A DNA stretch of 47,759 nt from Chloroflexota bacterium. Its GTDB lineage: Bacteria > Chloroflexota > Anaerolineae > Anaerolineales > E44-bin32. This document shows positions 17,980-43,852 of this stretch, piece by piece; the stretch's first letter is position 1, and every line of letters starts with the position of its first letter. The DNA lies in assembly GCA_027298025.1 (NCBI GenBank), contig JAPUGV010000277.1:1-47759 (forward strand). The letters are read 5' to 3'. The position numbers and the translations under genes are program-made. The notes beneath the pieces are model-generated. The model saw nothing but the letters and a program-made list of their open reading frames with translations. It did not search any database and was not told where the DNA came from.

Positions 17980-18058
17980 CGGCGGCGAAGATCATAACTC
18001 AACATAATAAGAACCAGGCTGCTGCAAGACTGGGCGCAACGAACTGCCAGGAGGAGAA

Positions 18059-20292: not shown

Positions 20293-21238
20293 ACTTGTTG
20301 CGGACGGCCTTACTGCTGTCGAGGCCCGCATGCGTGCGGGAATGGTGGCAGAGCTGCCGGCTTTGGGGGCTGCCATCGACCAGCTGCTCAGCTCGGGCGG
20401 CAAGCGCATCCGCCCCACCCTGGTGCTCTTAGCCGGGGGCCTGCTGGACGCGGACCGCGAACGCACGGTCACCTTGGCTGCAGCCGCGGAACTGCTCCAT
20501 ACTGCCACGCTTGTCCATGACGATCTAATCGACGGCGCACTTCTGCGCCGCGGTTTTCCCACCCTCAACGCGCAGATGGAGGATGGCGCCACCGTCCTGA
20601 TTGGCGACTACATTTTTGCGCGCGCCGCGCACCTAGCAGCTGAGACGGAGTCGCTACCGCTGATCAAAAAATTCGCCACGACGCTTGCGATCATCGTTAA
20701 TGGTGAGCTCGATCAGCTCCTCGGCTCTGCCACCGGAGACCATCGCCGTGATTACTTCGATCGAGTGTACGCCAAAACCGGCTCCCTATTCGAGTTGGCC
20801 GCCGAATCCCCAGCGCTGATTGCGGGCGCTGAACAGGGCACGATACGCGCGATGAAGAAATTCGGCCGTCAGATCGGCGTAGCTTTCCAGATCGTGGACG
20901 ACATCCTCGATTTCACTGGAAATGCCGACCTGGTGGGAAAGCCAGTGGGTGGCGATCTGCGCCAGGGGTTGATCACCCTGCCAACGATTTATCACCTGGA
21001 GGCCAATCCCGATGACTCCGACAAGATTGATGCGCTTGTTGCAGGCACACTCGACGCGGAGCAGGCTGCGCGGTTAGTTGAGACGATCCGCCACTCTGGC
21101 GCTGTGGGTAAAGCGCTGGATGAAGCATCGGATTACATTGAATCGTGCATTAGACTGCTGGACGATTTCCCATCCGATCGCCCCGAGCATCTTGCGCTCA
21201 TTGAACTGGCGAAGTACGTGCTCAACCGCACGCTATGA
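20264..21238 (+). CDS. long-chain trans-polyprenyl diphosphate synthase
   Basis: [20 protein letters not shown] and FQIVDDILD motifs. Confidence 0.92.
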
Positions 21239-28602: not shown

Positions 28603-29814
28603 ATGCAATCACTCGATTTACTGACTCAACTCCACCGTCCATCCTCGGCGAAGATCATTCTGCTCGTTTTAGACGGTCTTGGGGGCCTTCCGATGCAGAC
28701 TGGAGGGGCAACCGCGCTCGAAGCAGCCGCGACCCCTAATCTTGACCGGCTAGCTCAAGAAGGAACGACCGGCCAAACGATCCCCATTCTGCATGGTGTA
28801 GCGCCTGGGTCGGGCCCAGCGCACCTTTCGCTTTTTGGGTACGATCCCCTGAAATACGATGTCGGCCGCGGCGTCCTGGAGGCCACCGGCATTGGATTGC
28901 AGGTCGCCCCCGGGGATGTAGCGGCGAGGGGAAATTTCTGCACGCTCGATGGTGACGGCCTGATCACAGATCGACGCGCAGGCCGATTACCATCCGAGGC
29001 GGCCGCTCCGCTGGTGGAACAGCTGGACTCGATTAAGATCCCCGGGTACACGTTCGAAATCCGACAGGTTCGAGAGTACCGCTTCGCCCTGGTTGCTAGA
29101 GGAGAGGGACTTGAGCCAGGGCTTTCTGACACCGATCCCCAGCGAGTGGGCCAGGCTCCGCTGCAGGTTGTCCCCGAAACGCCGCAGTCACAGGCGTCAG
29201 CGGAGCTGTTCAACCAATGGATTGAGGCCTCTCGTTCCGTGCTTGCCCAAGAACCTCTGGCCAACGGGCTGACTCTGCGAGGATTCTCGACCGATCCCGA
29301 GTTGCCACAGTTCGGCCAGAGCTACGGTCTGAATGCGCTCTGCGTGGCGGTGTATCCGATGTACAAAGGTGTTGCCAAGCTGGTTGGCATGGAAATCCTG
29401 GAGTTTGAAGGTGAAGATCCCGCCGATGAATTCTCCGCCCTCGGACCCCGATGGGACGAGTTCGATTTTGCCTTCATTCATGTGAAGGCTCCCGACAGCC
29501 GGGGCGAAGACGGAGACTTTGAGGGGAAGGCGGCGGTTATCGAGCAGATTGACCGGGAACTCGGCCGGCTGATGGACCTCGAACCGGCAGTGCTCGCGGT
29601 AACGGGTGACCATTCCACCCCGGCACGCATGCGATCGCACTCCTGGCATCCCGTACCTCTGCTGATATGGGCGCCCGATACTGTGCGACCGGATGACTCA
29701 CTTAATTTTGGAGAGCGCGACTGTGCCCGTGGCGGGCTGGGAACCTTTCCTGCCAAGTCCTTGATGGCGCTGCTGCTCGCCCACGCCGGCCGTCTCAACA
29801 AGTTCGGCGCCTAA
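28603..29814 (+). CDS. apgM: 2,3-BPG-independent phosphoglycerate mutase, ApgM (archaeal-type) family
   Basis: LDGLG, TPNLD, PGSGPAHL, RGNF, DRRAGR, TGDHSTP and HSWHPVP; start moved downstream of the hairpin. Confidence 0.88.
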   Translation: MQSLDLLTQLHRPSSAKIILLVLDGLGGLPMQTGGATALEAAATPNLDRLAQEGTTGQTIPILHGVAPGSGPAHLSLFGYDPLKYDVGRGVLEATGIGLQVAPGDVAARGNFCTLDGDGLITDRRAGRLPSEAAAPLVEQLDSIKIPGYTFEIRQVREYRFALVARGEGLEPGLSDTDPQRVGQAPLQVVPETPQSQASAELFNQWIEASRSVLAQEPLANGLTLRGFSTDPELPQFGQSYGLNALCVAVYPMYKGVAKLVGMEILEFEGEDPADEFSALGPRWDEFDFAFIHVKAPDSRGEDGDFEGKAAVIEQIDRELGRLMDLEPAVLAVTGDHSTPARMRSHSWHPVPLLIWAPDTVRPDDSLNFGERDCARGGLGTFPAKSLMALLLAHAGRLNKFGA

Positions 29815-30494
29815 CCGGTGCGTGAGAGAAGCAAGCGCGAGATCATGTACAGCAGGCCGGCCTGGACCAGAGTCGCCACACCGACGGTACCAAAGGCCAC
29901 CTGCCAGAAACGTACGGGGAATAACCGAATCAAGGTGTCGCTGAACAGGAAGGTCCACGTATTTGGATCGAAGAAGACCTCGTGGAAGCCAACAAAAAGC
30001 ACCGAGAACGCGACGATCAACCCTATCAGCAGAATGACCATGACCAGCGCGGTCAGCTTGGCACCTCCCTGCAGGGTTTCCCAGATATATTGGCTGCCGG
30101 CGACTCTCCACAAGAGCACGCTGGTGGCGAGCGCGGTAACCAATCCAATGCGCCAGAGGTTTAAGGCTGCTCGGGTGACCTGCTTGACGTCCGCCATGTG
30201 GCCGAGCTCGCGCAGATTGTAAACCGGGGTGCCATCATCAAATTGCTGATCCCCAAGAAACTCGATTTCCGCATCATTCAGCAGATATTCGAGCGCGATA
30301 GGAGCATGGCGGAGCCGATCCGCTTGGGTAAACCCGTATAAGTCCCTCGGGAAGCCAGGCAGGGCATAATTGAAGCGCACGAAAGTGCTGGTCATCATCA
30401 GCCGCACGCTTGTCAGCACAAGGATTACCGGAATGAGCACTTGCAGGAAGACGCGCGCTGCCGTCAGCCATCCGGGTTGCGAAGTCGCATCCAT
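29811..30494 (-). CDS. TIGR01906/DUF1461 membrane protein, Lit (lipoprotein intramolecular transacylase)-like
   Basis: Four TM helices with ExxHMxDVK, FxxFHxxFF, WxF and LIRLFP motifs typical of the family. Confidence 0.8.
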   Translation of the reverse strand: MDATSQPGWLTAARVFLQVLIPVILVLTSVRLMMTSTFVRFNYALPGFPRDLYGFTQADRLRHAPIALEYLLNDAEIEFLGDQQFDDGTPVYNLRELGHMADVKQVTRAALNLWRIGLVTALATSVLLWRVAGSQYIWETLQGGAKLTALVMVILLIGLIVAFSVLFVGFHEVFFDPNTWTFLFSDTLIRLFPVRFWQVAFGTVGVATLVQAGLLYMISRLLLSRTG

Positions 30495-32062
30495 CAGGGC
30501 AGTCCTTCCATCCCCCCCAGCACAAATTGGAGCACAATCGAGTTGATTAGTTGTTCGACCGGCGCACGATCATCGGTGAACACGATGTCCGTTTCGGGCG
30601 TGGTTCGGATGTTCGCCGTCGCACGGTTGAGCACATCGATCAGTTCATTCGGTGCCTCGCGTCCTTCCAGGGCCAGGAGGTTTTCCACCAGGTTAGTGGC
30701 CTGCGTCGGCTCTCGCGTAGCATACAACAGCGAATTGAAGCTTCCCGGCACATCCACCAGATATACCGAGGGAAAGACGGCCTGGATCGTTCCAGCCAGT
30801 GCCTCGATCAGCCGTCTATCCTCAGCAGTACGCCCCACGTTTATCGCTAACACCCCCCGATCTTCAAGATGATCCGCCACGTTTTGGAAAAACTCAACCG
30901 AAGTTAGTTCCCAGGGAATATAGGGCGCGCGATAAGCGTCGATCGCGATGACCGAATACAGGTGCTCGCTTTGTTCAAGACCCGTGCGACCATCGGCTAC
31001 AATCGCATTTAGGTTTGGCTCGTTCATATCGAAGTATTCGCGGCCGACGCGGATGATCTCTGGATCGATTTCCCATCCATCGATAGGTACCGGTCCGAAA
31101 ATCTCTGAATACTGCTTCGCAATCGTGCCCCCGGCCAGGCCAATTAAACCCACCCGTCCAAGATCATCTAGCTCCACCGGGGCGGGATTGAAAAAAGGCG
31201 CTACGAGAAACATTTCCCATGTGCCGTATCCGTATGGAGGTGCACCTTCCTCCGGCAAATATATCGAGTGTTCCGCCAACCCCTCATTCAGGTAGAGCAG
31301 GCGCACGCCATCGTTCTCCACTACCTGGATGTAATTGTACGAGGACTCCGTTTCATACAGCGAACCGTCCTTGATTGGACCCGAGAGCGCCAGAGCGGAC
31401 AGGCCGATCAGCGCGATCGGCATCCATGCGTATCGCAGCATCCTGCGCGCACCACTCTCGAAGGCCAGACCTCCAAGTGCCATTAGCAGTAGAACTAGAC
31501 TGAACAAGAGGAACGTGCGGGCGGTGCCGATCGTTGGGATCAGCCATAATACCGGCAGAAAGGTTCCAAGAATCGAGCCTACGGTTGAAACCGCATACAC
31601 CCTTCCCGATGTGCGGCCCGCTTTCGCCGTCTCCGTGATCGAAAGACGGATAGCGAAGGGGGATACGCAGCCCAGCAGTGTGATCGGGACAACGAAGAGT
31701 ACGAGCACTGAAATGAAGGAACCGACCATAATCGCCGCGTCCAGTGCCTGCACTGCGACCGCCGCCTGCCGCAACACGGGCCGGGAAATTAGCGGCACCA
31801 GCCCCGCAGTGAACGCCCCCCACGCGATGATGCGATAGAAGGTGTCAGCATAGGGAGAGCGATCGGCCCATCGGCCGCCTATGAAGTAGCCGGCAGCCAA
31901 GTAAATCAGGATGAGGCCGATAATGTTTGCCCACACGATATTGCTGGTACCAAACACCGTGCCGAGCAATCGAGCGGCCGTGATTTCAATCGCCAGGGTC
32001 GTCATGCCGGCGGTGAAAACCGCAAGAATGATGAGCCTCTCACGCGTAATCAATCTGGTCAT
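30494..32062 (-). CDS. fused membrane (MFS-like) domain / spermidine synthase-like SAM-dependent transferase
   Basis: About 7 TM helices (EIxAxRLL, GGRWAD, YAVSTVGSILG) followed by IGLAGG, EID, DGR, IDAY and TDD motifs; start at ATG 32062. Confidence 0.85.
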   Translation of the reverse strand: MTRLITRERLIILAVFTAGMTTLAIEITAARLLGTVFGTSNIVWANIIGLILIYLAAGYFIGGRWADRSPYADTFYRIIAWGAFTAGLVPLISRPVLRQAAVAVQALDAAIMVGSFISVLVLFVVPITLLGCVSPFAIRLSITETAKAGRTSGRVYAVSTVGSILGTFLPVLWLIPTIGTARTFLLFSLVLLLMALGGLAFESGARRMLRYAWMPIALIGLSALALSGPIKDGSLYETESSYNYIQVVENDGVRLLYLNEGLAEHSIYLPEEGAPPYGYGTWEMFLVAPFFNPAPVELDDLGRVGLIGLAGGTIAKQYSEIFGPVPIDGWEIDPEIIRVGREYFDMNEPNLNAIVADGRTGLEQSEHLYSVIAIDAYRAPYIPWELTSVEFFQNVADHLEDRGVLAINVGRTAEDRRLIEALAGTIQAVFPSVYLVDVPGSFNSLLYATREPTQATNLVENLLALEGREAPNELIDVLNRATANIRTTPETDIVFTDDRAPVEQLINSIVLQFVLGGMEGLP

Positions 32063-32091
32063 GGATAATCGCAGAATTGTACTTCGTTGAA

Positions 32092-33177
32092 CTATTGCGC
32101 CACCAGGATCGCCAATAGGGCAGACCAAAAGAGACTGTACCGCAGCGGCCGCAAGAGTTGTTGCGAGGCGGAAAACAAAATCACAGCCAGTACCAGGCCG
32201 CTTGCAAATCGCACCAGCCCTAGCGGCTCACGAAAGGTCGAGAACGGCAGGGCCATCACCGCAATTCCATTCCCGAGCAGCGACCAGGTTTCCGCCGAAG
32301 ACATGCCTCTGAGGATCGATCGAACGGAGACGACTACGGCCCATATCGTGGGCAGCACGATTGTTGGCAAGAACATAATGAGAAACAGACCCAGTGCGAG
32401 CATGTCCACAGATCCGATGCGAAATAATCCCATGAAGGGGATCCACTCGAATGAGGTGGCCATATCCCCACCGCTTCCCAGTCCAAGGCTCCCAAAGGTC
32501 CTCCAAAGCCAGGCCTGCCAGCCGATGAAGATCACCAGGGAGGCCAGATAGGCGACTAAGGGACGAGTTCTCCGTTGCCCGGTCAGCTCAGCCAGGAGGG
32601 CGGCGGCCAAGAAAATGATCGTGGTTTCTTTTGCAAACAGGGCCAGGCCGAGCAGCAGTGCACTCCACACGACCCTGCCTCTCGCTCTTAGCAGCCATCC
32701 CCCCGCCGCGAGGCCATAGGCCAGGGGTTCCCCAAGTCCCACCCCAATGGGAGCCACCAGGCCCACCCATAAGCCATAAGACAGCGCATACCAGGGATTC
32801 AACACCCGATCCAGCAGGAAGCGCGCGACCGCCCACGTGCCTCCCCAGTGCGCCAGCAGGCCCGCAATCACCAAAGTCCATGGCAGCCAGGCTTCGACCC
32901 CCATCGACATCAAGCGTGCGGAGAGCGGGAACAGGATCCGTTGATACCGATAGGCGGGGACATCCAATTTCGGCCCGACTTCTTTCGGGTCGGGGTTCGA
33001 GGCGATGTAGTAGGAAAACTGCCCATCGTACCCGGGCGAGCCACCCTCAATTCCCTGAGAAAAGCGGGTACCCAACTCGAAGAGTTCGATTGGCGCCCAG
33101 CCAAGGCTTGCCAGGCGCCAGACAACGTAGGCGGCTGCTGCCAGGGTCGATATCGTTGCTGGCCAGAAGGCTCTCAT
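32092..33177 (-). CDS. GT-C-like polytopic membrane protein (AZOBR_p60025-like)
   Basis: GYDGQF, D.PAYRYQRIL.P, E and AKE motifs; ATGA overlap with upstream gene. Confidence 0.7.
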   Translation of the reverse strand: MRAFWPATISTLAAAAYVVWRLASLGWAPIELFELGTRFSQGIEGGSPGYDGQFSYYIASNPDPKEVGPKLDVPAYRYQRILFPLSARLMSMGVEAWLPWTLVIAGLLAHWGGTWAVARFLLDRVLNPWYALSYGLWVGLVAPIGVGLGEPLAYGLAAGGWLLRARGRVVWSALLLGLALFAKETTIIFLAAALLAELTGQRRTRPLVAYLASLVIFIGWQAWLWRTFGSLGLGSGGDMATSFEWIPFMGLFRIGSVDMLALGLFLIMFLPTIVLPTIWAVVVSVRSILRGMSSAETWSLLGNGIAVMALPFSTFREPLGLVRFASGLVLAVILFSASQQLLRPLRYSLFWSALLAILVAQ

Positions 33178-35372
33178 TTGCGACTCAGGTATGCGAAAGC
33201 CGCCAACCCCACAAGGGACAGCGCAAGGCCGATGGGGACCGTGGTCGGACGGTAGCTGAAGTTCACCGTGTGTTGTCCCGCTGGAACCCACACGGCTCTC
33301 ATAACCCCATATGCAGGATAGCTTTCGGTGGCCCGACCATCGAGCTCGGCCGTCCATCCTGGATACCAGGTATCTGCCAGCACCAGCCAGCCTCCCTCCG
33401 GCGCCTCAACCGCAAGCTCCACCTCGTTTGGACCCTTATCTTGGAGGGCCGTCACCACGCCCAGACCGCCCACCTCCGGTCGGGGATCCCCTTCCAGCAG
33501 CACTTCTTCGGATGGGTCGAATTCTGGAGCGGTCGTTTTGCGGATGGCCTCCGTTGGACTCGTCACCCACTCTGCTCTCGGAACAATCCAGGCCCGCACT
33601 GGAGCCGATACCGGGTCATAGTGAGTCGGAACGTCCACAGCCTGCCATCCAACGTCCATATAGCGCAGCAATCGGTCGCGCAGCGCGGGGGTCGTACGTT
33701 CCAGTTGCACCATCCATGCGACATATCTTGCGGGGAGCAGAGGATCGAAATTGTTGACGGATGGTAGTCGATCCAGCAATAGCGTATTCGGCAGACCACT
33801 TTCTCGAACGATCCGCCAGTCGAGCTCGGGTTGAAAGTCGTCAAATCGAAACGCTATATCAAACTTAATTTCTCTCTCCACGTCTTGCGACATGTACAGA
33901 CGATGGTCACCAGACACTTCCTCACTGAGAGCGGTCGGGGCCGAGTTGAACTGGGCTGGTAATGTGGGATTGAGCCCACGACCGGCAAGGAAGAGGTCGA
34001 GCACAACGACACCGAGGGCGGCCGCGGTCCATCCTTTTCGGGCCGGATCCGTGCGCAGAAGTGTCAGGATTCCGCTGGCGGCCAGCCAGAGCCCGGCCAC
34101 GGCAATCGCGCGGGTGAAAGTCGGTTGGATGTCGGTCTCAAGTAAGCCGATCAGGGCGGCGACCACCAGGACGGCAACCGATCCGGCGGTGCCAAGGCGA
34201 ATCCAATAGAGTTTCCGCCCCCCCGCAACCTTCCAATGTTCGGCTCCCAGGCCTGCGAGCAGCGACAGAGAGGCAATCAGCCAGAGATTCCAACGTGTGG
34301 GCGCCTGGAATAAGGAAAACGTCGGGACATTCTCGAAAAGGAAGGTGAAGATGGGCGTGTTGTTTCCGAGGCTCAGTAGAAATGCGACCGCTGCAGTCCC
34401 GAGCAGGAACCATCTAAGACGGCCGCTCCTTTTGGAAAAGAGTGCACCGACGGCCAGGAGGAATGGAAGCACCCCTATGTAGATCGCGTCTTCCCAGAAA
34501 TTTCCGTAACCCCAGAAATCTGCTGTCCGCGGATTGCCATAAAGATCGGGCGCAACGAGCCCGAATAACCGCCAGGGCCAAAACGAATAGGTCAATGCGA
34601 ATTCAGGGTCTAGATCACCAGCCCGGTTGGAAACCGACACATACTCCAGTGTCGGAATGAGCTGCACGGCGGCAATGGCAAATGCGAGCACCCCGGCCGC
34701 CACCAGAGACACGACTGCTTTTCCAGCCGAGCCTGAGTAGAAGCGCGTACGGTATGCGACCCACGCAGCGGCCAGAATTAGCGTGTACCATGCGATCTGC
34801 GCGTGTCCTGAGAGCCACTGGAGGCCGAGCACCAGACCGAGCAAGGCCACGGTGCGCGGCTTGGGCTTTTGTGACAAGCCCTCTGCGGCAAACAGGATCC
34901 AGGGTAGCCAGGCCGCGGCGGCATTGATACTGAGGAAGCCTGATCTGGCAACCAGGTACCCAGACATCCCGTACGCAAGCCCTGCGATGGCCTGGGCAAA
35001 CGCACCGAGCCTCACGGACCGAGCAAGCAATGCCATGCCGAATCCGGCCCATATGAGGTGCAGCAAAACCAACAGCGTTTGGCCCCACGAGACATCCGTC
35101 GCTAGCAATATCCAGTTCGGCGGATACAGCAGCGCCGATTGATAATTCGCCAGCAGCGGTGCTCCCATTCCCAGCCACGGGTTCCACAATGGGAAGTGGC
35201 CCAAAAAAGCGATCTCTTTGGCCGCAGTGTGCCATGGCGTGAACTGCAGTAAGGGAGCACCCCAGAAAAGCGCCCGACCTCGGATCAGGTCGATTCCGAA
35301 GAGAAGAATCGGCCCGACTGCAATTGGCAGCCAGGGAAGTGCCTTACGGAAGGCAGGTTTGGTAGAGTTCAT
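33174..35372 (-). CDS. YfhO-family GT-C membrane glycosyltransferase (copy B2)
   Basis: PLWNP..GxP..YPPNW, GHAQ, and C-terminal YPGW...RAV.VPAGxHxVxFxYxP plus a final TM helix. Confidence 0.8.
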   Translation of the reverse strand: MNSTKPAFRKALPWLPIAVGPILLFGIDLIRGRALFWGAPLLQFTPWHTAAKEIAFLGHFPLWNPWLGMGAPLLANYQSALLYPPNWILLATDVSWGQTLLVLLHLIWAGFGMALLARSVRLGAFAQAIAGLAYGMSGYLVARSGFLSINAAAAWLPWILFAAEGLSQKPKPRTVALLGLVLGLQWLSGHAQIAWYTLILAAAWVAYRTRFYSGSAGKAVVSLVAAGVLAFAIAAVQLIPTLEYVSVSNRAGDLDPEFALTYSFWPWRLFGLVAPDLYGNPRTADFWGYGNFWEDAIYIGVLPFLLAVGALFSKRSGRLRWFLLGTAAVAFLLSLGNNTPIFTFLFENVPTFSLFQAPTRWNLWLIASLSLLAGLGAEHWKVAGGRKLYWIRLGTAGSVAVLVVAALIGLLETDIQPTFTRAIAVAGLWLAASGILTLLRTDPARKGWTAAALGVVVLDLFLAGRGLNPTLPAQFNSAPTALSEEVSGDHRLYMSQDVEREIKFDIAFRFDDFQPELDWRIVRESGLPNTLLLDRLPSVNNFDPLLPARYVAWMVQLERTTPALRDRLLRYMDVGWQAVDVPTHYDPVSAPVRAWIVPRAEWVTSPTEAIRKTTAPEFDPSEEVLLEGDPRPEVGGLGVVTALQDKGPNEVELAVEAPEGGWLVLADTWYPGWTAELDGRATESYPAYGVMRAVWVPAGQHTVNFSYRPTTVPIGLALSLVGLAAFAYLSRK

Positions 35373-36891
35373 ATCCGCCTTGACCGTCCAAGAGATCCAA
35401 ACACTCCCATTCCTGCGGGTCCCAATCGCCAAGGGCGCGCTCTCTAGGTCCGAAAATCACATAGGTGATTCGCTCTTCTCGTATGAGTGACATTCGCTGT
35501 TCTTCTGTCCCTGAAACCTGATAGAAATCTTCGATCCTGGGTTTCAATCCGGCCAGCCCCGCGGTCTCAGGCCCGTGACCGGCGACAACTCGCACCGGTG
35601 CCCAAGCCGGTAGGGGATTGCTGGTTTCGAACGAGGCCAGCACAATCGCCGACGGCTCCGCCAGCTGACTCAGGCGGCGAAATGCCTCGACCTCTTCCTG
35701 AGGTCGGAAGGCAGGCTCTCGAGCGTTCAGCGCAAGCTCAAATCCCCCGGCCAGGATCAAGAGGCTGCTAGGGATCAACAAGATGGCCATGGCGACCCTT
35801 CCAAGCCTCCGCCTTGGGCCTCCTTCGAGCGTAGCAAGCCCCGCCGCCGCCAGCACGGTCAGCGCCACCCAGCCACCCTCTGGAAGTCGGCGCTGTATGT
35901 TTAGCGGCGCCCACGCCAACGCCGGGATGGCAATCGCCCAGGCAACCGGAAACAACAACGCCTCCCGATTTCGACGTAGCAGACTACCCGCACCTATGAA
36001 AGCGGCAGGTAGCAGAATGCCGAACGCTAGCAGATACAGGATGGGATGAGGCGAAAGGATGAGATTTTGAGCGGTCCAGGCTTGCAGGTATGGATCCGTG
36101 AGCGCTTTATAGCCAAGGTACGCACTCAGTGGGACGGAGGGCAGGATCGAGCGCGCGAGGCGTTTCATCCAATGGGCCTTATTCGCTCCAAATCCCAGGA
36201 CCGCAATCGCGTGCGCGGCCAGTACTGCAAAGGCAGAGAGCAATTCGGGAGAATGGATTAGGCCCGCAAGAAGCAGGGCAAAGCCTGAGCGCCAGCTCGA
36301 TTCATCCTGTAGATACCAGACAAAGCCGAGGAGCATCAGCGCTCTTCCCAGCGTCAGATGCGGCAGACCGTATATGGCCAGGAACCCGAAGGTCTCCGGA
36401 GAGTAAAACTCTAGAGGCAGACTGCCGGCAACCGCCGGCTGTCCCAGAAAAATCAGAAACCAACCCAGCCCTCCCCCGATTGTTGCGATAACCACCGTCC
36501 AGCGGCGCAGCCCAATGTTTTCAATAAACAACGACGAGAACCGGTACACCGCGAGCACCAGGGCTGGGATAGCCAACACGCGAAACAAGTGGTAGAGCGC
36601 CACCAGCTGGCCATGAGATCCGTCGCTCGCTTTACCGAGCAAGAGGTACGGCAAGAACGCTAGAACGCCGGTTTGCTCTGTTGCGGAATACGGGCTTCTA
36701 AAGAGCCAAGCTCCCTCAAATCCCGAGAGCATCTTAGCGATGTACGAATTGCCGTCTTCTGCAGCGATGAGAAATCCGGTGAAGGTCCAATCATGTGTCG
36801 GGCTTGTGGCTGCCAGCAAGTAAGGCAGGCTTGTTACAAGTGCCAGCATCAACGAGTAGAGCAGGGCCCAGCGAATCTCGCTTCTCGTCAA
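35344..36891 (-). CDS. uncharacterised polytopic membrane protein, GT-C-like (copy A2)
   Basis: First-loop DGNSYIAKM, PE, PH, QRR, and soluble C-terminal domain with GHGPET and YVIFGPRE. Confidence 0.65.
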   Translation of the reverse strand: MTRSEIRWALLYSLMLALVTSLPYLLAATSPTHDWTFTGFLIAAEDGNSYIAKMLSGFEGAWLFRSPYSATEQTGVLAFLPYLLLGKASDGSHGQLVALYHLFRVLAIPALVLAVYRFSSLFIENIGLRRWTVVIATIGGGLGWFLIFLGQPAVAGSLPLEFYSPETFGFLAIYGLPHLTLGRALMLLGFVWYLQDESSWRSGFALLLAGLIHSPELLSAFAVLAAHAIAVLGFGANKAHWMKRLARSILPSVPLSAYLGYKALTDPYLQAWTAQNLILSPHPILYLLAFGILLPAAFIGAGSLLRRNREALLFPVAWAIAIPALAWAPLNIQRRLPEGGWVALTVLAAAGLATLEGGPRRRLGRVAMAILLIPSSLLILAGGFELALNAREPAFRPQEEVEAFRRLSQLAEPSAIVLASFETSNPLPAWAPVRVVAGHGPETAGLAGLKPRIEDFYQVSGTEEQRMSLIREERITYVIFGPRERALGDWDPQEWECLDLLDGQGGYELYQTCLP

Positions 36892-39119
36892 CGCCTGATC
36901 CAGATCGATGCCAACACGATCAGTCCGATGAGGGTGACGAGCGCTCCCGCCCGCAGCGAGTTGGGGCGGAAGGCAAACTCCACTTCGTGCTCCCCGGACG
37001 ACAGTTCAACCGCGCGCAGCAGCCCCGCGTACGTCTCGAGGGGGGCCGTCGCACCGTCGATCGTCGCCTCCCACCCTGGATACGCGATTTCACTAACAAC
37101 GAGCGTCCCCGGTCCCATAGCTCGCATTGCGATTCGATTGGGGGTCCGCTCCACCACCTCTACCGGTCCCCCGCCATCGATCCAGGCACGCGGCCTGGCA
37201 TGAGGATTGCGGTAGTAGTAGCGCCCCTGCTCCATTCTTTCAAACTCGAGATCGGGGTGCTCAATCGGATATGCCGAGACGATCTGGGAGATAGCGAGGT
37301 CTCCCATTAAGACCAGATCTGGCTTGAAGGCCCATTTGGCCCCAGGATCCACGAATGGTGGCAGAGTCACCGAATATTCGTCTTCACTGAATCCGGTGGC
37401 CCGTGACATATAGGCCGAGTAGGAGGCAAGCTGCAGAGGATTGATTCCATCCGCCAATTCGAGCCCCGCGGCGGCGGCAGCGGGCTGAGGCAGGCTGTAA
37501 GAGGGCGAAAACGCGCGTGGGTTGCCCGATTCCGGTCCCGCCTTTACACGTTCTAGATCCGGAGCAGGGCGTACTTCAATGGTAGTTAGATTCACCAGGC
37601 TGAGGTCGAGGACGATCAGCAGGCACCATCCCACGATTGACCCTAGCGACCGCTTACGTATGGAATTCCCGGTCCAGATGGCTGCCAATCCGATCAGCGC
37701 GGCAGATACGAAAAAGGCCGCCGACCGCAGTGCTGCCAGATTGCGCAGCAAGAGGCTGAGGCCCAGCACCAGAGATATGCCCGCGAGTGCCCCACCGATG
37801 ACGCGAAGCTGTCTGAGGTTTGCCCGTCCCTTGAGCATCTGATCCAATCCCATGCCGGCCAGCATGGCCAGCGCAAATGAAGAGAGGAACAAGCTACGGG
37901 GAGGTACGCGCAGTTTGCCAAACCCGGGCACGAGCGCAGATAGAAGCCCGTAGATCGGTGTGAGGTCGCCAAGAGCGACAATGAGCGAGAAGATAACAAC
38001 TCCTACCCAGAACCACCGTCCCGGCGCACGGCTCGGCAGTGTCGTCACGGCAAGGAAGAGCACCACGACCCCTGCATATATCTGCCATTCCGGCCAGCCT
38101 GCGTACTCGGGAGCCAACGCGTTCAGTAGATATTTGGGAGGCAGGCGGAGTGCCGTCGATTGAGCTAGAGAAAGGTTCGCGCGAGTACTGAGCGATACAA
38201 ACTCACCCAACGGTACGGCCAATATCGCCGCAACGGCCAGAGACATTAGCCCGGCGATGATGAGGGCCGAGGCCGCTCGGGTCCAACTCGCTCCCTCACC
38301 GCCGATATTGCCGACCTTACGAGGGGCTTCTCCTAGCGCTTGCGATTGCTGTGCGCCTGAATCTCCGTTTTCTGCGGAGCCGATTTTCCCCTGGCGATTT
38401 TTGATCATGAGTTGCGACGGTCTGAGATCTTGTGGTGCGGCTTCATCCGCATTTTGCTCCGTAGATCTTATTTGGCTATGCGCAAAACGCCACACAGCAA
38501 ATGCCCCCGCTAGCAGCGCCGATGGCAAGTACCAACGCGGATCGATTAGAAATACCATGCCCAGCGCGCCCCCTGCGAGCGCCGCAGATGCGAGGCGCCT
38601 CCCATTCAATTCGCGAACCGCCTTCTCAAAGGCGAGCAACACCCAGGGAGTCCAGTAGACGGCAAAGACCAGCGAAACGTGTCCGAGCCCAAAGTGCCCG
38701 ATCAGCTTTGGCATTCCCGCAAACGCCAAGCCCGCCACGATGGCCGGGCCCGACCGGATCCCGAGGGTTTGCCCAAGCTTCCACATGCCCAACCCGCCCC
38801 AGGCTATATGGAGCCAGGCCAGCAAATTGAATGCCACACCGGGATTTAGCACGATTGCCAGCCAGTTCGGCGGGTAATATAGCCCAGAAAGTGGATCGGC
38901 CGCGAACGGGGCGCCCGAGAGGATCATCGGATTCCAAAGGGGTACTTGCCCCCACTCAATCAGCGAACGCTGCACAAAGCTCGCATTCGGCCAATGAGAA
39001 ATCAGGAGATCCGAATATGCGCCCCCTCGCCAAAAAAGCACCCCCATCGGATCGCTGATTAGGGGCGCAAGCCATAACATGCCAGATAGCACAAAAATTA
39101 AAACGATGGCAGCGGTCAA
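36888..39119 (-). CDS. YfhO-family GT-C membrane glycosyltransferase (copy B1)
   Basis: SD in first loop, PLWNP..GAP..YPPNW, RVPPR and C-terminal YPGW...GEHEVEFAFRP; TTGA overlaps at both ends. Confidence 0.8.
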   Translation of the reverse strand: MTAAIVLIFVLSGMLWLAPLISDPMGVLFWRGGAYSDLLISHWPNASFVQRSLIEWGQVPLWNPMILSGAPFAADPLSGLYYPPNWLAIVLNPGVAFNLLAWLHIAWGGLGMWKLGQTLGIRSGPAIVAGLAFAGMPKLIGHFGLGHVSLVFAVYWTPWVLLAFEKAVRELNGRRLASAALAGGALGMVFLIDPRWYLPSALLAGAFAVWRFAHSQIRSTEQNADEAAPQDLRPSQLMIKNRQGKIGSAENGDSGAQQSQALGEAPRKVGNIGGEGASWTRAASALIIAGLMSLAVAAILAVPLGEFVSLSTRANLSLAQSTALRLPPKYLLNALAPEYAGWPEWQIYAGVVVLFLAVTTLPSRAPGRWFWVGVVIFSLIVALGDLTPIYGLLSALVPGFGKLRVPPRSLFLSSFALAMLAGMGLDQMLKGRANLRQLRVIGGALAGISLVLGLSLLLRNLAALRSAAFFVSAALIGLAAIWTGNSIRKRSLGSIVGWCLLIVLDLSLVNLTTIEVRPAPDLERVKAGPESGNPRAFSPSYSLPQPAAAAAGLELADGINPLQLASYSAYMSRATGFSEDEYSVTLPPFVDPGAKWAFKPDLVLMGDLAISQIVSAYPIEHPDLEFERMEQGRYYYRNPHARPRAWIDGGGPVEVVERTPNRIAMRAMGPGTLVVSEIAYPGWEATIDGATAPLETYAGLLRAVELSSGEHEVEFAFRPNSLRAGALVTLIGLIVLASIWIRR

Positions 39120-40669
39120 CGCTCCGGTACCTTATACAAGTCGGAGTCACCTTCCCGATGGGCAAATTCGGCTAGCGAGAGCCAAGAAGGAATCCCCAGC
39201 TTCTTCTCTTCTTCACCATAAAAGGCGTATTCGACGCCAGCCGCCCGAAGAGCCTGAAGCCCCAACACCGGATCCCCGTCCCAATTCCACAGTTCTCGAA
39301 CTAGCGCCTTTTGGGCATCTGAATGGGGGGTTTCAAATGGATGGCCATAAAGCACACGGACATCGCTATAGGCCGGCAATCGGTTGCCGGATTCGAGGCC
39401 GGCGAGGATCAGCGGATCTTCGGAGATGTTAAGTCCGATCCATTCGAGCAATGCCTGATCGCTCTCCGACATCACGACGCCTGCCTCTCCGCGCGAAACC
39501 GCAACTAATCCCGATCCGATGACGACCAGGTGAGAGGGTACGGAAAGCGCGATGGTTGCAGCCATCAACAGCGCAAACCTCCGACGGGTGGAAGCAATGG
39601 CATCTAGCCCGACGCCCGCCAGCGCCGCGAGGGGAATGAAGAGGCCGAGCGTCAGCCGACGCTGAAGGGAAACCGGCAAGTAGAGCATGAAAAATCCCAA
39701 GATGGCCCATGTGATCAGCAAGCGCCCGGAGGACCGACCGCGGGCATTTCCCAACAGCATTCCCACGACCGCTAATATCAGCACCAGGCCATATCCAAGT
39801 AGAACTTCCATGATGCCTGGTGTTGGCGTCAGATTTTGCGCATTCCAGGCGAATAAGACGGGATGCCGACGGATCACGCCCAACGTGTACACGAGCATCG
39901 GGAGGGCTCCAGCCAAAAATGCCGTCATCCCTACCACCCAGCTCCTTAGCTGCACGGCCTGCGTCCCGTGCAGGCGCTCGACCACCAGCCAGACGCCGAG
40001 CACAATTCCGATCGCGGCCACTGTGAATGGTTGAAGCAACGCCAATAGCAGCCCGCCGAGGAAGAGCACGGCTTGACGCGCATCCGGCAGAATCTTGGGG
40101 AACAGGATCAACGTTACGGAGGTTATCAAAGCCGCAGTCGCCAGCGGAAAGTGCGCATTGGCATAGGCTGAGAGGAACGGAATCGCCTCTGGAACCCACA
40201 GATCAATCGGAAGCAACCCCATGAGCAGGGCGATGCCACCCACTCCAGACCCAAATAGGGTGAGCACAAATGCAGCCCACTTAGCCCTCGGCGTCGGAAG
40301 CGTACGTACAAAGAAGAAATAGCTGCTTCCTAGCATTGCCAATGCGCCGAGCACACGCGCGGCATGGTAGGTCAGGATTTGCGGCAGCCCGATAACGCTG
40401 CTGATTCCGCCAAGGATCAGCTGGTATACAAAGAGCAAGACCCCCGGTCCCGGCTCGGGTGCATATGGAAGCCGAATCTCGAAAACGAGATCGGCCCCCT
40501 GCCGCATTTTGGCGAGATAGCTGAAGCCGTCAACAGGATTGATCAGGAATCCACTGAAAGTCGATCCCGTTTCGAGAAGCACGGGTGCGACCAAAAATGG
40601 AAGGGAGGTAAGCACGACAGCCAGCAGTGCCAGGCCGGCTGCCCAGCGCAGCTCGTGATTATGAAGCAC
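39116..40669 (-). CDS. uncharacterised polytopic membrane protein, GT-C-like (copy A1)
   Basis: DGFSYLAKM, PE, QRR, GHPFET and YAFYGEEE; clear paralog of 35344-36891; start at GTG 40669. Confidence 0.65.
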   Translation of the reverse strand: MLHNHELRWAAGLALLAVVLTSLPFLVAPVLLETGSTFSGFLINPVDGFSYLAKMRQGADLVFEIRLPYAPEPGPGVLLFVYQLILGGISSVIGLPQILTYHAARVLGALAMLGSSYFFFVRTLPTPRAKWAAFVLTLFGSGVGGIALLMGLLPIDLWVPEAIPFLSAYANAHFPLATAALITSVTLILFPKILPDARQAVLFLGGLLLALLQPFTVAAIGIVLGVWLVVERLHGTQAVQLRSWVVGMTAFLAGALPMLVYTLGVIRRHPVLFAWNAQNLTPTPGIMEVLLGYGLVLILAVVGMLLGNARGRSSGRLLITWAILGFFMLYLPVSLQRRLTLGLFIPLAALAGVGLDAIASTRRRFALLMAATIALSVPSHLVVIGSGLVAVSRGEAGVVMSESDQALLEWIGLNISEDPLILAGLESGNRLPAYSDVRVLYGHPFETPHSDAQKALVRELWNWDGDPVLGLQALRAAGVEYAFYGEEEKKLGIPSWLSLAEFAHREGDSDLYKVPER

Positions 40670-40676
40670 GGCCGAG

Positions 40677-40682
40677 ATTTTA
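40677..40682 (-). promoter_or_regulatory. -10 TAAAAT, leaderless start of the GT-C operon
   Basis: 7 nt between the hexamer and GTG 40669. Confidence 0.5.
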
Positions 40683-40706
40683 CGCCGGTATCGGCCACCC
40701 CGCCAT

Positions 40707-40736
40707 TTGCCCCGCAAACCTCCCCACATTTATAAT
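40707..40736 (+). promoter_or_regulatory. promoter TTGCCC-N18-TATAAT, leaderless zinc-ribbon gene
   Basis: TATAAT at 40731-40736, 6 nt before ATG 40743. Confidence 0.65.
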
Positions 40737-40742
40737 CCATTC

Positions 40743-41444
40743 ATGAGTCGCGCCTCTGGCTTGTACCGCCTCCAGGAAATTGATCTCGAGAATGATAGGC
40801 TAAAAGGGCGGCTTGAAGAAATTCGAATTACCCTCGATGATTCAGCTGAAATCACACAGCTTAGAGCCGATCTGGCTGCCAAGGAATCGGCATTGGCCAC
40901 CGTCCAGGCGGCATCCACGCGAGCCGAAAACGAGGTGGAAGATCAGCGGCTCAAAATCCAGAACACTGAGCAGGCCCTCTATGGGGGAAGCGTCAAACAT
41001 CCTAAGGAACTCGAGGATCTTGAAATGGAGTCGGAGTCGCTGAAGCGCCATCAAGACACGCTCGAGGATCGCTACCTGGAGGTCATGCTGGAGCAAGATG
41101 AAGCAGAAGGCAAGCTGACCCAAAGCTCGGCCTCCTTGGAGGTCGCTGAATCCGGTCAGGCGAGCCAGCACGTGGAGTTGGTCACCGAACGAGAGAGTAT
41201 TGATAATCGTCTGGCCAACCTGGAGGCCGAACGAGAAGTAGCATTAGCAAGCGTCTCTAAGCAGGATCAAGACGCCTATGAAGGATTGCGAACTCGCCTG
41301 CGTGGCGTAGCGGTAATCGTGCTGAACGGGGACAGCTGCGGCGCATGCGGGTTGACGCTATCCGCCTCTTCCCGACAACTGGTAGGCAGCGGTGACGAGC
41401 TCATACGCTGCACCCAGTGTGGTCGAATCCTGTACGGAGGTTAG
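40743..41444 (+). CDS. coiled-coil plus C4 zinc-ribbon protein (DUF164/CT398-like)
   Basis: LQEID start, long coiled coil, CGAC and CTQCGRIL. Confidence 0.85.
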   Translation: MSRASGLYRLQEIDLENDRLKGRLEEIRITLDDSAEITQLRADLAAKESALATVQAASTRAENEVEDQRLKIQNTEQALYGGSVKHPKELEDLEMESESLKRHQDTLEDRYLEVMLEQDEAEGKLTQSSASLEVAESGQASQHVELVTERESIDNRLANLEAEREVALASVSKQDQDAYEGLRTRLRGVAVIVLNGDSCGACGLTLSASSRQLVGSGDELIRCTQCGRILYGG

Positions 41445-41446
41445 CG

Positions 41447-43852
41447 ATTTTCGGACCCTTCGGACCTTTCGGAATACGGTTTGACATCGAAGAATTTATC
41501 GGCGGCCTAGTAGCCGGAATTCTCGTCGGTCTGCTCTTGGCCAGGCTCAAGCCGGCCTTTGTCTGGGTGATCGCAAGGATCAGAGAGCAGCTAAATTCCC
41601 TGCGGTCAGGGCTCACGGGCCGGGCCATTGACCGCTACCAGGTCGAACTTATTTCCCGCGCAGAAACTATGCACCTAGCTCGGGCTATTCTGGCGCTGGA
41701 TGAGATCCTCATTCCACCACGCGTGCTGGTCCCGCCCGCTCCATCCGATCCATCGAGCGATAACGATGTCCCACAGGACACACTTGGGGTTTTGCCGAAT
41801 CTTCCAGATTTCACCTACTTGTCCGGCGTATATGTGGCGCACACGCTTTCGCTCGGTGAGGCGCTGAGCAACGGCGCGGATCTGATACTCACGGGCGATC
41901 CGGGCAGTGGCCGATCCACGGCTCTGGCTTATCTGGCTATCCGGCTTGCGAACCGCGATGCGGCACTTGGCGAGCTCACGGGCAAGGTCCCCATTCTAGT
42001 ACATGCCGCAGACCTGCCGCTCGAGGGTCGCCAGGCTGCAATTGGACCGGTGATCGATGCCGCTCAACGGACCGTATCGCCGAGTGTGGCGGCCATGCTG
42101 CCCAGCTATATTCAAAAGCACTTTGAAAGCGGAAACGCACTCCTGCTCCTAGATGGGTTGGATGAGATCCCCTCCGAGGATCTCCCAGAAATTTCGACCT
42201 GGCTGAAGGAACTGCGCGCTCTGCATCAGGACCTTCGAATCGTAGCCGCGGGCCCGACGGATATGCTCGACGGACTGACGCAGGCAGGCCTGACTCCAGT
42301 TCCGATTGCCCCCTGGACGGAACGTATGCAGCGCGAGTTTTTTTCCAGGTGGGGTCGATCCTGGAACGAGCATGTCGTTCCGAACCAGCCGAAGAGTCGC
42401 ATCTCGGACATTGACCCGGCCTTGATAAATGGTTGGCTGGCCGGGACCACGCGCGGCCGAACTCCGGCTGAGATTACGCTTCGAGTTTGGGCAGCATACG
42501 CCGGCGATATTCGAGGTCAGCGAGCTGTGGACGATGCGGAATCCTACGCCGCGCGCGTGCTCTCTCCCGAGGAGCAGCGGCATGTCGAGGAAGTGGCCTT
42601 GGCTTGGCTGAAAGCCGGCAAAGCTGCCATCCCCGAGCGCGCCCTCCCAAAGGGGATTCCAATCCCAAGTTTGGTCGAAGCCGGGATTCTGGTTCGCAGA
42701 TCCGGGGGCCTCATTTCATTCTTCCAGCCCGGAATTGGCGCCTACTTTGGAGCGCGAGCCATGGCTCAGGGTGAGCTGTCGGAAAGCGTTGAGAGCGCCA
42801 GGTGGGAACCGGCGTCCAAGGCCCTGCACTACTATGCCGTACTCGGTGATCCCGAGGCGGCTGTCACGCGGGCCTTGAATTCCAATGGTGAGCCATTGGA
42901 GACGGGTCTGCTCAAGAGTGCCCGCTGGCTTCCTGATTCTTCGAGCAAGGCCGAGTGGCGAGGCAAGCTGCTCCGCGAAGTGGCAAAGATGGTTCAGGAC
43001 GCCGCCAAACCGTACGGCCTACGTCTGCGTGGGGTACATTCGCTTGCCAAGGCCGAGGAGGCATCGGTCAATATACTGTTCACACGAATGCTGAAATCAC
43101 CGGCAACCTCTAGCCGTGTCCTGGCGTGCCTGGGCCTTGGGGGTATGGCAGATGAGGATTCAGCGGAAGGCCTGGTCACGATCGCCCAGGGAGATTCGGA
43201 GCCTCTTGTGAGGCAGGCCGCATGCCTGGCGTTAGGGGCGATCGGCAACGATGCCGCGTTAGAAGGCCTGGGACAAGCGCTTTTGGGCGGGGACGAACAG
43301 CTCCGACTGGCGGCGGCGGAAGCGCTCGCGGTGCACCCAGATGAAGGCTACGGCATGTTGCGGGAGGCTGCGGAGCACGAGGAAATCATGACCCGTCGTG
43401 CAGCTGCATTTGGCCTGGCCAGGATTCAAGACGAGTGGGCGATCGAAATATTAGAGAGAGTCAAGGTGGATGACGAAGAGTGGATCGTACGCGGTGCGGC
43501 GGCCGAAGCCCTCGATCGTAGGCTCAAACCTCCCTGGAAGATCTATGCGCCTCCAAATGAGCCGGCAGAGCTGCCCTGGGTAATCGCATATGCGGCCAAA
43601 GAGGGCCTAGGAGTTGCACCGGGCAAAGCGTCTACTGAGATGTTGCGACGTGCATTGAGCAATGGATCGTTTGATGAGAAGGTCGCTGCACTGGAGGTGC
43701 TCGGCTGGGGCGCAGGCGAGGAGCTGACGCTCGAGCTTTACAAAGCACTCGAGTCGGGCGATGACCACCTGCGAGACATAGCGTTTGAATCGCTCTGGCG
43801 CTTGTCTACGACGGGGGTCCGCTTGCCCGACCCGCTGAAATTCGGCCTCTAA
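41447..43852 (+). CDS. TM-anchored NACHT-like NTPase with C-terminal HEAT repeats
   Basis: N-terminal TM helix, GDPGSGRST, LLLLDGLDE and HEAT units (VRQAACLALG, LRLAAAEAL, TRRAAAFGL, VRGAAAEAL); start ATT 41447 or GTG 41417. Confidence 0.75.
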   Translation: MFGPFGPFGIRFDIEEFIGGLVAGILVGLLLARLKPAFVWVIARIREQLNSLRSGLTGRAIDRYQVELISRAETMHLARAILALDEILIPPRVLVPPAPSDPSSDNDVPQDTLGVLPNLPDFTYLSGVYVAHTLSLGEALSNGADLILTGDPGSGRSTALAYLAIRLANRDAALGELTGKVPILVHAADLPLEGRQAAIGPVIDAAQRTVSPSVAAMLPSYIQKHFESGNALLLLDGLDEIPSEDLPEISTWLKELRALHQDLRIVAAGPTDMLDGLTQAGLTPVPIAPWTERMQREFFSRWGRSWNEHVVPNQPKSRISDIDPALINGWLAGTTRGRTPAEITLRVWAAYAGDIRGQRAVDDAESYAARVLSPEEQRHVEEVALAWLKAGKAAIPERALPKGIPIPSLVEAGILVRRSGGLISFFQPGIGAYFGARAMAQGELSESVESARWEPASKALHYYAVLGDPEAAVTRALNSNGEPLETGLLKSARWLPDSSSKAEWRGKLLREVAKMVQDAAKPYGLRLRGVHSLAKAEEASVNILFTRMLKSPATSSRVLACLGLGGMADEDSAEGLVTIAQGDSEPLVRQAACLALGAIGNDAALEGLGQALLGGDEQLRLAAAEALAVHPDEGYGMLREAAEHEEIMTRRAAAFGLARIQDEWAIEILERVKVDDEEWIVRGAAAEALDRRLKPPWKIYAPPNEPAELPWVIAYAAKEGLGVAPGKASTEMLRRALSNGSFDEKVAALEVLGWGAGEELTLELYKALESGDDHLRDIAFESLWRLSTTGVRLPDPLKFGL
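41450..41473 (+). repeat. 9-bp tandem repeat TTCGGACCY, about 2.7 units (FGP-FGP-FG)
   Basis: TTCGGACCC TTCGGACCT TTCGGA read directly. Confidence 0.8.

Follow-up and report, generated by a model that had tools for sequence, protein, structure and literature searches.

Two conserved gene modules, a five-gene GT-C block and a methyltransferase/Lit-like pair, adjoin in an Anaerolineales genome and may assemble and tailor the cell surface

The gene cluster described here lies on contig JAPUGV010000277.1 of a Chloroflexota bacterium of the order Anaerolineales (GCA_027298025.1), a 2.7-Mb metagenome-assembled genome that is 90% complete; the window analysed is the entire 47.8-kb contig. Positions 29811-40729 are occupied by seven open reading frames (ORFs) on the minus strand, named A1, Y1, A2, Y2, P5, P6 and P7 (Table 1), each of which, by family or by predicted fold, encodes a polytopic membrane protein. 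A first-pass annotation had described seven co-oriented membrane-protein genes with tightly packed junctions, and a reading of the sequence confirms the arrangement and every junction. The stop codon of A1 overlaps the start of Y1 in a TTGA (39116-39119), Y1 and A2 share a second TTGA (36888-36891), and A2, whose stop lies at 35344, overlaps Y2 by 29 nt when the ATG at 35372 is taken as the Y2 start. Y2 and P5 overlap in an ATGA (33174-33177), a 29-nt gap separates the P5 stop (32092) from the P6 ATG (32062), and P6 and P7 meet in a TGATG at 30494.

Table 1. Predicted genes of the cluster and the adjoining intergenic gap, with the assignments argued for in the text
Feature	Position	Strand	Length and assignment
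A1	39116..40669	-	517 aa; predicted member of a GT-C family lacking a database model; ORF extendable to ATG at 40729
Y1	36888..39119	-	743 aa; YfhO family, putative GT-C
A2	35344..36891	-	515 aa; same uncatalogued GT-C family as A1; small alpha/beta domain at the C-terminus, resembling that of AglB/PglB
Y2	33174..35372	-	732 aa; YfhO family, putative GT-C; ORF open to TTG at 35432
P5	32092..33177	-	361 aa; minimal GT-C by predicted fold, membrane domain only
P6	30494..32062	-	522 aa; about seven membrane helices, then a class I methyltransferase domain like that of spermidine synthase
P7	29811..30494	-	227 aa; Lit-family (TIGR01906) membrane protein
Divergent gap between A1 and a CT398-like zinc-ribbon gene (40743-41444, +)	40670..40742	.	

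A1 and A2 are paralogs (28% identity over their full length, E 3e-39), and neither matches a Pfam or NCBIfam model at E ≤ 0.1. A1 carries all 17 columns that are invariant in a 42-row alignment of the A family, among them an aspartate (D46) that stands just after helix 1 in all 42 rows, its placement in a loop being read from secondary structure. An AlphaFold2 model of A2, built from this alignment, has a mean predicted local distance difference test (pLDDT) value of 95 and a predicted template modelling (pTM) score of 0.93, and all 30 top Foldseek matches of the model at E ≤ 1e-3 are glycosyltransferases of fold class C (GT-C). When superposed with VIA-align, the model matches STT3B (6s7t; Z 20.3, root mean square deviation (rmsd) 4.9, 447 residues aligned), DPY19 (Z 19.1), AglB (18.8), AftA (18.0), Pmt4 (16.7) and ArnT (15.3), while residues 393-513 on their own match the globular domain of AglB-S2 (Z 10.3, rmsd 1.9, 113 aligned) and the C-terminal domain that of PglB (Z 8.5). 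For the models of A2 and P5 alike, only GT-C enzymes are found at Z 13-20, with unrelated rows at Z ≤ 7 (7.1 for the next unrelated row of P5). The A family is nonetheless STT3-like in shape without being a member of the STT3 family, because the WWDxG motif is missing (of the 42 rows a single one has WWD, and there it sits at residue 271, not in the C-terminal domain) and the family profile finds 0 sequences of the PDB at E ≤ 1. Neither A1 nor A2 matches Pfam STT3 or PMT at E ≤ 0.1, and an identity as a true oligosaccharyltransferase was rejected on the absence of WWDxG. In a search of 1.84 billion representatives the family comprises 8,118 clusters (50% identity) at E ≤ 1e-3, of which 3,685 remain at E ≤ 1e-30, and the best 120 matches, named or unnamed, carry no precomputed Pfam domain. 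The A family is thus a large GT-C family without a database model, to which A1 can be assigned by its paralogy with A2.

Y1 and Y2 are a second pair of paralogs (26% identity). Against Pfam YfhO (PF09586; gathering cut-off 28.5 bits), Y2 scores 74.5 bits (E 8e-21, profile 75-437) and Y1 38.8 bits, the latter over a C-terminal stretch only (profile 783-835), and this membership marks both as putative GT-C enzymes. Across 15 orthologues of Y1, Asp37 is invariant and Asp75 nearly so, both in what the secondary structure suggests to be the first outer loop. In 17 orthologues of Y2 the position of Asp75 is taken by an invariant Asn76, and the first 240 residues hold no invariant acidic residue; Y2 may therefore use another catalytic residue or serve as a non-catalytic partner. 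Y1 and A2, which adjoin in the gene order, also occur as one chain elsewhere: all 8 of the 8 proteins longer than 900 aa with an A domain run from a Y1-type YfhO domain into an A2-type domain, through linkers of about 12-90 residues. Provided that the end of YfhO and the beginning of A both lie inside the cell, this is, we infer, the order that topology allows, and these rare fusions probably back Y1 and A2 as a working physical pair. Y1 is split into two adjacent ORFs in one relative (L024, 11712-14001), as is Y2 in another (L032, 5429-7831), by either a frameshift or an assembly error.

P5 covers nearly all of NF046093 (profile 9-231 of 232), a model named for AZOBR_p60025 and annotated as 'cell surface glycopolymer formation', at 123.8 bits (E 6e-36); this is below the cut-off of 150 bits and makes P5 a clear relative, not a member. 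A literature search found no paper on AZOBR_p60025. The AlphaFold2 model of P5 (pLDDT 91) aligns with AglB (Z 17.9), Pmt1/2 (17.2), ArnT (16.5) and ALG12 (16.2), and in all 18 GT-C entries occupy the range Z 17.9-13. Foldseek returned GT-C enzymes in its top rows, with ArnT the best match at E 3e-3 and none at E ≤ 1e-3. An invariant GYDGQ at residues 49-53 places Asp51 just after helix 1 in all 16 rows (placement again from secondary structure). The structural check proposed in the first-pass annotation, run on A2 and P5, thus yields a GT-C fold for both, and its count of five GT-C-like proteins holds when these are joined by Y1 and Y2 (Pfam) and A1 (paralogy).

P6 scores 186.3 bits (cut-off 40) on NF037959, a model of fused major facilitator superfamily (MFS)/spermidine synthase proteins, and covers both halves of the model, the membrane part at profile 4-227 and the catalytic part at 305-480. 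No other gene of the cluster is as conserved as P6, whose mean column identity is 73%. Searched against solved structures, the P6 profile ranks two entries above the true spermidine synthases: the C-domain of human METTL13 (5wcj, 6e-12), its best solved sequence match, and 3gjy (2.4e-11), an uncharacterised Corynebacterium protein. At the acidic position of the GxG(D/E)G motif P6 and its relatives have glycine or alanine (GLAGGT in P6, GLAAGT in the consensus). The acidic residue binds decarboxylated S-adenosylmethionine (SAM), and a study of the fungal N-terminal histidine methyltransferase (NHMT) uses it as the criterion that separates methyltransferases from spermidine synthases (PMC10349129). 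P6 is thus probably a methyltransferase of the METTL13/NHMT kind rather than an aminopropyltransferase, and not a true spermidine synthase. NHMT itself combines seven helices with a spermidine-synthase-like domain and is described as methylating the N-terminal histidine of secreted lytic polysaccharide monooxygenases (PMC10349129). P6 resembles the NHMT AN4663 (558 aa) in size, in its order of about seven helices and a spermidine-synthase-like domain, and in the non-acidic residue of the motif, a likeness of layout and not one drawn from comparing membrane-domain sequences. The seven-helix region of NHMT is reported to be confined to filamentous fungi (PMC10349129), whereas the P6 family occurs in bacteria and archaea. 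The whole-length structural neighbours of P6 are clusters from Chloroflexota, Bacillota, Binatota and Nitrososphaerota (template modelling (TM) scores 0.86-0.97), and because they span these phyla the family (NF037959) can be called widespread, and uncharacterised, in bacteria and archaea. A crude hydropathy and Lys/Arg count over 14 orthologues gives a provisional topology of seven helices, with the N-terminus inside and the catalytic domain outside the cell.

P7 passes the cut-offs of PF07314 (70.9 bits, cut-off 24) and TIGR01906 (83.6 bits, cut-off 74.8), and its profile matches the lipoprotein transacylase Lit of B. cereus (7b0o) at E 1.8e-12. Its invariant H99-M-x-D-V aligns with His85/Asp88/Val89 of Lit and its invariant F-x-x-F-H171 with Phe149/Phe152/His153; His99 and His171 are invariant in 13 orthologues, and the Lit residues are reported to be its catalytic dyad (His85 and His153) and the surroundings of that dyad (PMC8275575). 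P7 thus shares with Lit the Pfam family, the four-helix size class, the catalytic histidines and the Phe/Trp/Asp/Val around them, and differs in falling into the separate TIGR01906 group. Searches on TIGR01906, DUF1461 and PF07314 found, among the papers listed, no account of function in Chloroflexota. Lit is not known to be coupled to a protein of the P6 type, whereas P7 is so coupled in Anaerolineae. A complex prediction for P6 with P7 scored 0.00, which is evidence neither way. The proposals that P6 is a membrane SAM-dependent transferase and P7 a Lit-like protein are both borne out, the first by a membrane domain joined to a SAM-type methyltransferase domain, the second by the two family cut-offs and the retained histidines. 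As for the pathway in which Lit acts, Lgt is present in this genome, LspA was not found in it (at 90% completeness) and is present in all 25 relatives searched (25/26 genomes), and Lnt exceeds its cut-off in 1/26 of the same genomes. Given this distribution, a Lit-type enzyme would find substrates and no competitor. A second, weaker Lgt-family gene (G000:C4:29999-31038) adjoins a short CN-hydrolase gene with a weak Lnt match, and in three relatives (G032:C15, G026:C175, G027:C59) lspA has a similar CN-hydrolase no more than about 1.5 kb away; these neighbourhoods may represent a lineage-specific lipoprotein-processing cluster.

How the seven genes are arranged in relatives separates them into two groups. 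Of 41 genomes drawn from the genus, family and order, 35 carry a homologue of A2, mostly as two copies spaced about 3.7 kb. We labelled the ORFs of 20 loci around A2 homologues by BLASTP against the window proteins, and all seven genes occur in the window's order at 13 of them, which goes beyond a chance arrangement. P5 and P6 abut in seven of the 13, all from the window's genus; in five, from other genera of the family, a 2.2-2.6-kb insert lies between them, encoding MoxR and DUF58 in both inserts scanned; and in the last, from another family (L022), the place is taken by a 251-aa GT2. The order Y1-A2-Y2 recurs in 17/20 loci, 15 of which read A1-Y1-A2-Y2-P5. The remaining arrangements are varied: the block is followed by MoxR-DUF58 and lacks P6-P7 in L023, parts of the block stand without P6-P7 in L027, L036 and L037 (with other genes parting A2 from Y2 in L036), L040 ends at P5, L039 reads A1-A2-P6-P7, and L038 holds two tandem A genes.

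Starting from P7 instead, we took the best 80 of the related loci, which number at least 593 in genomes representing species; nearly all of the 80 bear the label Anaerolineae or Chloroflexota. In 74 of these 80 P6 immediately precedes P7 on its upstream side (counting L064, where a stop-to-stop ORF artefact occurs); two have no room upstream and four have no P6. Where at least 6.5 kb upstream of P7 is available (52 loci), block genes precede P6-P7 in only 12, and 40 lack any member of the block. The upstream neighbours in the 15 block-free loci that were scanned are alaS, ogt, a sigma factor, ruvB or yjeF, and downstream follow apgM or a histidine phosphatase together with a MalK-like ATPase, as in the window, where apgM and a MalK-like ATPase gene lie directly downstream of the cluster. 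In single loci the gene directly upstream of P6 is a GT2 (L058) or MoxR-DUF58 (L074). A pairing of P6 with P7 beyond the class Anaerolineae was considered and rejected: among the best 30 TIGR01906 loci, P6 lies upstream in 4/5 from the window's class and in 0/25 from other Chloroflexota classes (one of these, L160, from the unpublished genome G219).

The same division appears across the phylum. In one even set of 201 Chloroflexota genomes, the A family is present in 39 and TIGR01906 in 86 (one being G219), and both occur together in 13, against 16.7 expected if they were independent (a reading of the two tables, in which kin are not independent). Families f14 and f15 have P7 in 18/18 genomes and A in 1/18, while families f31, f35, f40 and f43 have A in 20/27 and P7 in 0/27. 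From this distribution and the gene-order counts, P6-P7 is a trait of the class Anaerolineae and the GT-C block a separate unit. The refuting condition named in the first-pass annotation, homologs without conserved linkage, thus applies by half: linkage is kept in the family of the window and in two more families of its order, but across Anaerolineae as a class the last two genes form a pair independent of the block.

A pair encoding a MoxR AAA+ ATPase and DUF58 was located at L024:4311-6583, L031:12623-14919, L023:4332-6629 and L074:6077-8375. It follows P5 in the absence of P6-P7 in L023 and precedes P6-P7 in the absence of the block in L074, and behaves as a third mobile module joining the GT-C block and P6-P7. 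The only DUF58 homologue of this genome is on contig C164 (33% identity). One locus (L101) carries an Anaerolineae-type Y1-A2-Y2-P5-(insert)-P6-P7 and is filed as a Methanosarcinales archaeon bin, probably because the contig was mis-binned.

Folds, families, conserved residues, gene orders and distributions were computed, while the donors, acceptors, topology and catalytic steps proposed below are inferred. The reading we favour, with a confidence somewhat short of an even chance, is that two separate conserved modules lie end to end, one assembling a surface glycopolymer or lipoglycan and the other tailoring lipid-anchored amines. The first (A1-Y1-A2-Y2-P5, 32092-40669) would consist of five GT-C enzymes, laid out as two paralogous A-then-YfhO pairs followed by the minimal GT-C. 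Each would add a sugar on the outer face of the membrane, drawn from a polyprenyl-phosphate-sugar that a small GT2 encoded elsewhere would make in the cytoplasm, and through their successive steps a single surface glycoconjugate would be built or extended, with Y1 and A2 probably acting as a physical pair. We weakly favour a glycopolymer or lipoglycan over a protein as the acceptor, because five different GT-Cs, a glycopolymer-annotated relative of P5 and the GT87 neighbours described below fit polymer building better; to name lipoproteins or S-layer proteins instead would be a guess. The second module (P6-P7, 29811-32062) would be a translationally coupled pair of a methyltransferase and a Lit-like acyl-shift enzyme, tailoring an amine. 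In a lineage with Lgt and LspA and without Lnt, the likeliest such amine would be the N-terminus of diacylglyceryl lipoproteins.

The supply of donors is consistent with this division of labour. The first-pass annotation correctly noted that the cluster itself lacks a donor synthase and a GtrA; both are found elsewhere in the genome. The GT2 inserted at L022 is most like PpgS, AglJ, ArnC, dolichyl-P-hexose synthases and PgfS, in each case below the equivalog cut-off; its homologue in this genome, 48% identical, lies on contig C159 and adjoins an UptA/DedA-like gene. A GtrA-family gene lies on contig C281 next to a sugar-nucleotide dehydratase/epimerase gene. Among the neighbours of A genes in 18 loci of other Chloroflexota classes are GT87 (6), PMT_2 (2), small GT2 (5) and Wzy_C (2). 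Within the window, genes for a phosphomannomutase/phosphoglucomutase and a polyprenyl synthetase (18011-19483 and 20264-21235) are found on the opposite strand, 10-12 kb from the cluster, and could supply sugar-phosphate and lipid carrier; as far as relatives were looked at, the two were not seen as conserved neighbours.

Multi-GT-C envelope clusters are of an already known kind. Corynebacteriales use sets of GT-C enzymes (Emb/Aft/MptA-B/PimE with Ppm1/PpgS) to build lipomannan, lipoarabinomannan and arabinogalactan. As in the window, several different GT-Cs are encoded together, no Wzx/Wzy or ABC exporter genes accompany them, and the donor is made by a small GT2 whose gene may lie at another site; the structural matches of A2 and P5 include AftA, AftB, AftD and PimE, and GT87 is a neighbour in other Chloroflexota classes. 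They differ in that the window's GT-Cs lie outside those families by sequence, and neither the pairing of A with YfhO nor the YfhO family itself is found in the mycobacterial sets. The YfhO/GtlB/PgfM1-PgfM2 systems of Firmicutes (PMC5836110, PMC8035078) offer a second comparison, since Y1 and Y2 pass the Pfam YfhO cut-off, and the three-component logic is alike, with a cytoplasmic GT2 making a C55-phosphate-linked sugar, a flippase, and a GT-C acting outside. Here, by contrast, two YfhO genes alternate with two A genes and are followed by a fifth GT-C, with no teichoic-acid genes nearby. STT3, AglB and PglB are the best whole-length structural matches of A2, down to the small C-terminal globular domain, and differ from it in the WWDxG motif, in Pfam STT3 membership and in length (650-870 aa in the matched chains). 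Searches of the literature on YfhO, GT-C, the Chloroflexota cell envelope and lipoglycan found no description of this cluster, and one joining YfhO, spermidine synthase and membrane found nothing. What is new here is an uncatalogued GT-C family within a multi-GT-C envelope cluster, and the lineage-specific pairing of a widespread methyltransferase family with a Lit relative.

Several observations weigh against the two-module reading as we have drawn it. The outer-loop aspartate kept in Y1 is missing from Y2, so that not all five GT-C proteins need be catalytic. P7 reaches 30.8 bits on the Lit equivalog NF051877, for which 400 are needed. The catalytic domain of P6 is counted as outside the cell, and we know of no supply of SAM there. 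P6-P7 also stands beside glycosylation genes in several layouts, namely those of the window's genus, of its sister genera, and of L022, L039 and L058; given these different adjoining layouts, the pair may have a functional link to glycosylation. The acceptor might just as well be a protein, and the points that speak for this are taken up with that explanation.

A rival explanation, which we consider unlikely, keeps the two modules and has the five GT-Cs glycosylate proteins, such as pilins, S-layer proteins, lipoproteins or Ser/Thr-rich regions, with the A proteins in the role of an oligosaccharyltransferase or Pmt and with glycan extension left to the YfhO proteins and P5. It draws on the fold of A2, closest to the protein-modifying STT3B, DPY19 and AglB and with a C-terminal domain like that of AglB and PglB, and on Y1 and Y2, which weakly match the equivalogs of PgfM1/PgfM2 (22-28 bits against cut-offs of 1400-1500), streptococcal protein-glycosylation enzymes. 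Tad/Flp pilus genes (T2SSF, T2SSE, Flp pilin) lie by A genes in 5/18 of the loci from other classes (L135, L138, L141, L142, L147), which hints at possible pilin glycosylation in those classes. Chloroflexota surface filaments are moreover described as carrying probable O-glycans, with the glycosylating machinery given as unidentified (PMC12488501). Set against this are the missing WWDxG hallmark, the failure of the A proteins to match Pfam STT3 or PMT and of their profile to find any PDB sequence, and the better fit of a five-GT-C block, a glycopolymer relative of P5 and GT87 neighbours to a polymer. The 47.8-kb window, in addition, holds no candidate acceptor gene.

The explanation that the first-pass annotation preferred, one operon and one dedicated pathway, with glycosylation, methylation and acyl shift acting on the same lipid-anchored surface molecules, we regard as improbable. 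The overlapping or 29-nt junctions throughout agree with it, as does the seven-gene order at 13/20 loci, which comprise every complete locus of the window's family and one of another family, and P6-P7 adjoins A1-A2 alone in L039 and a GT2 alone in L058. Shared descent of the gene order can, however, explain linkage inside one family. Across Anaerolineae 40/52 loci have no block upstream of P6-P7, with housekeeping genes in its place in the 15 examined; the opposite distributions in f14/f15 and f31/f35/f40/f43, and the 13 shared genomes where 16.7 were expected, separate the two modules further; and in sister genera MoxR-DUF58 parts P5 from P6. A single dedicated pathway of seven genes is therefore not supported.

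A bolder proposal can be made for the second module, which we hold to be very doubtful: P6 would be a bacterial counterpart of NHMT, an extracytoplasmic methyltransferase whose own seven-helix, transporter-like domain would feed it SAM, and which together with P7 would give lipoproteins or other lipid-anchored amines an undescribed N-terminal form. If true, it would give prokaryotes their first system for SAM-dependent methylation outside the cytoplasm. Least probable is that P6 is a genuine membrane polyamine aminopropyltransferase, with P6-P7 handling polyamines or polyamine-modified envelope components: P6 passes Pfam Spermine_synth (26.3 bits, cut-off 22.9) and keeps the aspartate of the spermidine synthase active-site strand (D375), yet its weak matches to four speE equivalogs fall far short of their cut-offs (54/304, 38/472, 35/260 and 28/250 bits), the acidic residue that marks spermidine synthases in the NHMT study is Gly or Ala (PMC10349129), and among solved proteins it comes closest to METTL13 and an uncharacterised one, ahead of spermidine synthases.

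The Chloroflexota envelope is described as layered and lacking lipopolysaccharide, with outer layers that are tentatively put down to polysaccharide or protein (PMC13319060). For such an envelope the locus offers concrete glycosylation candidates, in the form of a conserved five-GT-C block and a GT-C family, thousands strong, without a database model, and the natural YfhO-A fusions suggest two GT-C enzymes working as one machine. P6-P7 raises the question of whether an NHMT-like membrane methyltransferase acts on exported proteins in bacteria, which could be pursued in cultured Anaerolineae such as Bellilinea (L090). The finding is a well-defined target, not the discovery of a function.

The promoter proposed for the cluster was not supported. 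A candidate leaderless promoter had been placed ahead of A1. A promoter consensus scan of 29500-41000 gave 2 promoter-like sites against 4.3 ± 1.9 in shuffled sequence; the sole match in the divergent gap is on the plus strand, serving the opposite gene, with none on the minus strand there. The A1 start proposed earlier (40669), a GTG, follows a TATAAA-like stretch at a distance of about 60 nt, so that a transcript from this stretch would carry a leader. Terminator-like sites over the same range showed no excess (14 against 12.0 ± 3.3 in shuffles).

The surroundings of the cluster are of a housekeeping kind, with mreB-mreC-PBP2-minCD-rodA, gltX, a peptide-chain release factor gene, relA, pgk and gap. 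The zinc-ribbon gene across the divergent gap encodes a CT398-like coiled-coil protein and is divergent from A1 in 14/20 related loci; here it is followed by a gene for an 818-aa HEAT-repeat protein (41396-43849, +), and neither has an evident tie to the cluster. DNA near-identical to 29811-39800 (45-92% of sampled 31-mers) was detected in 20 metagenome runs from 11 studies, all of DNA and none of RNA among those listed, and mostly labelled sediment or marine sediment. The best match among these runs may be the sample of origin, and with runs from so many studies the source organism evidently recurs across sediment-type samples.

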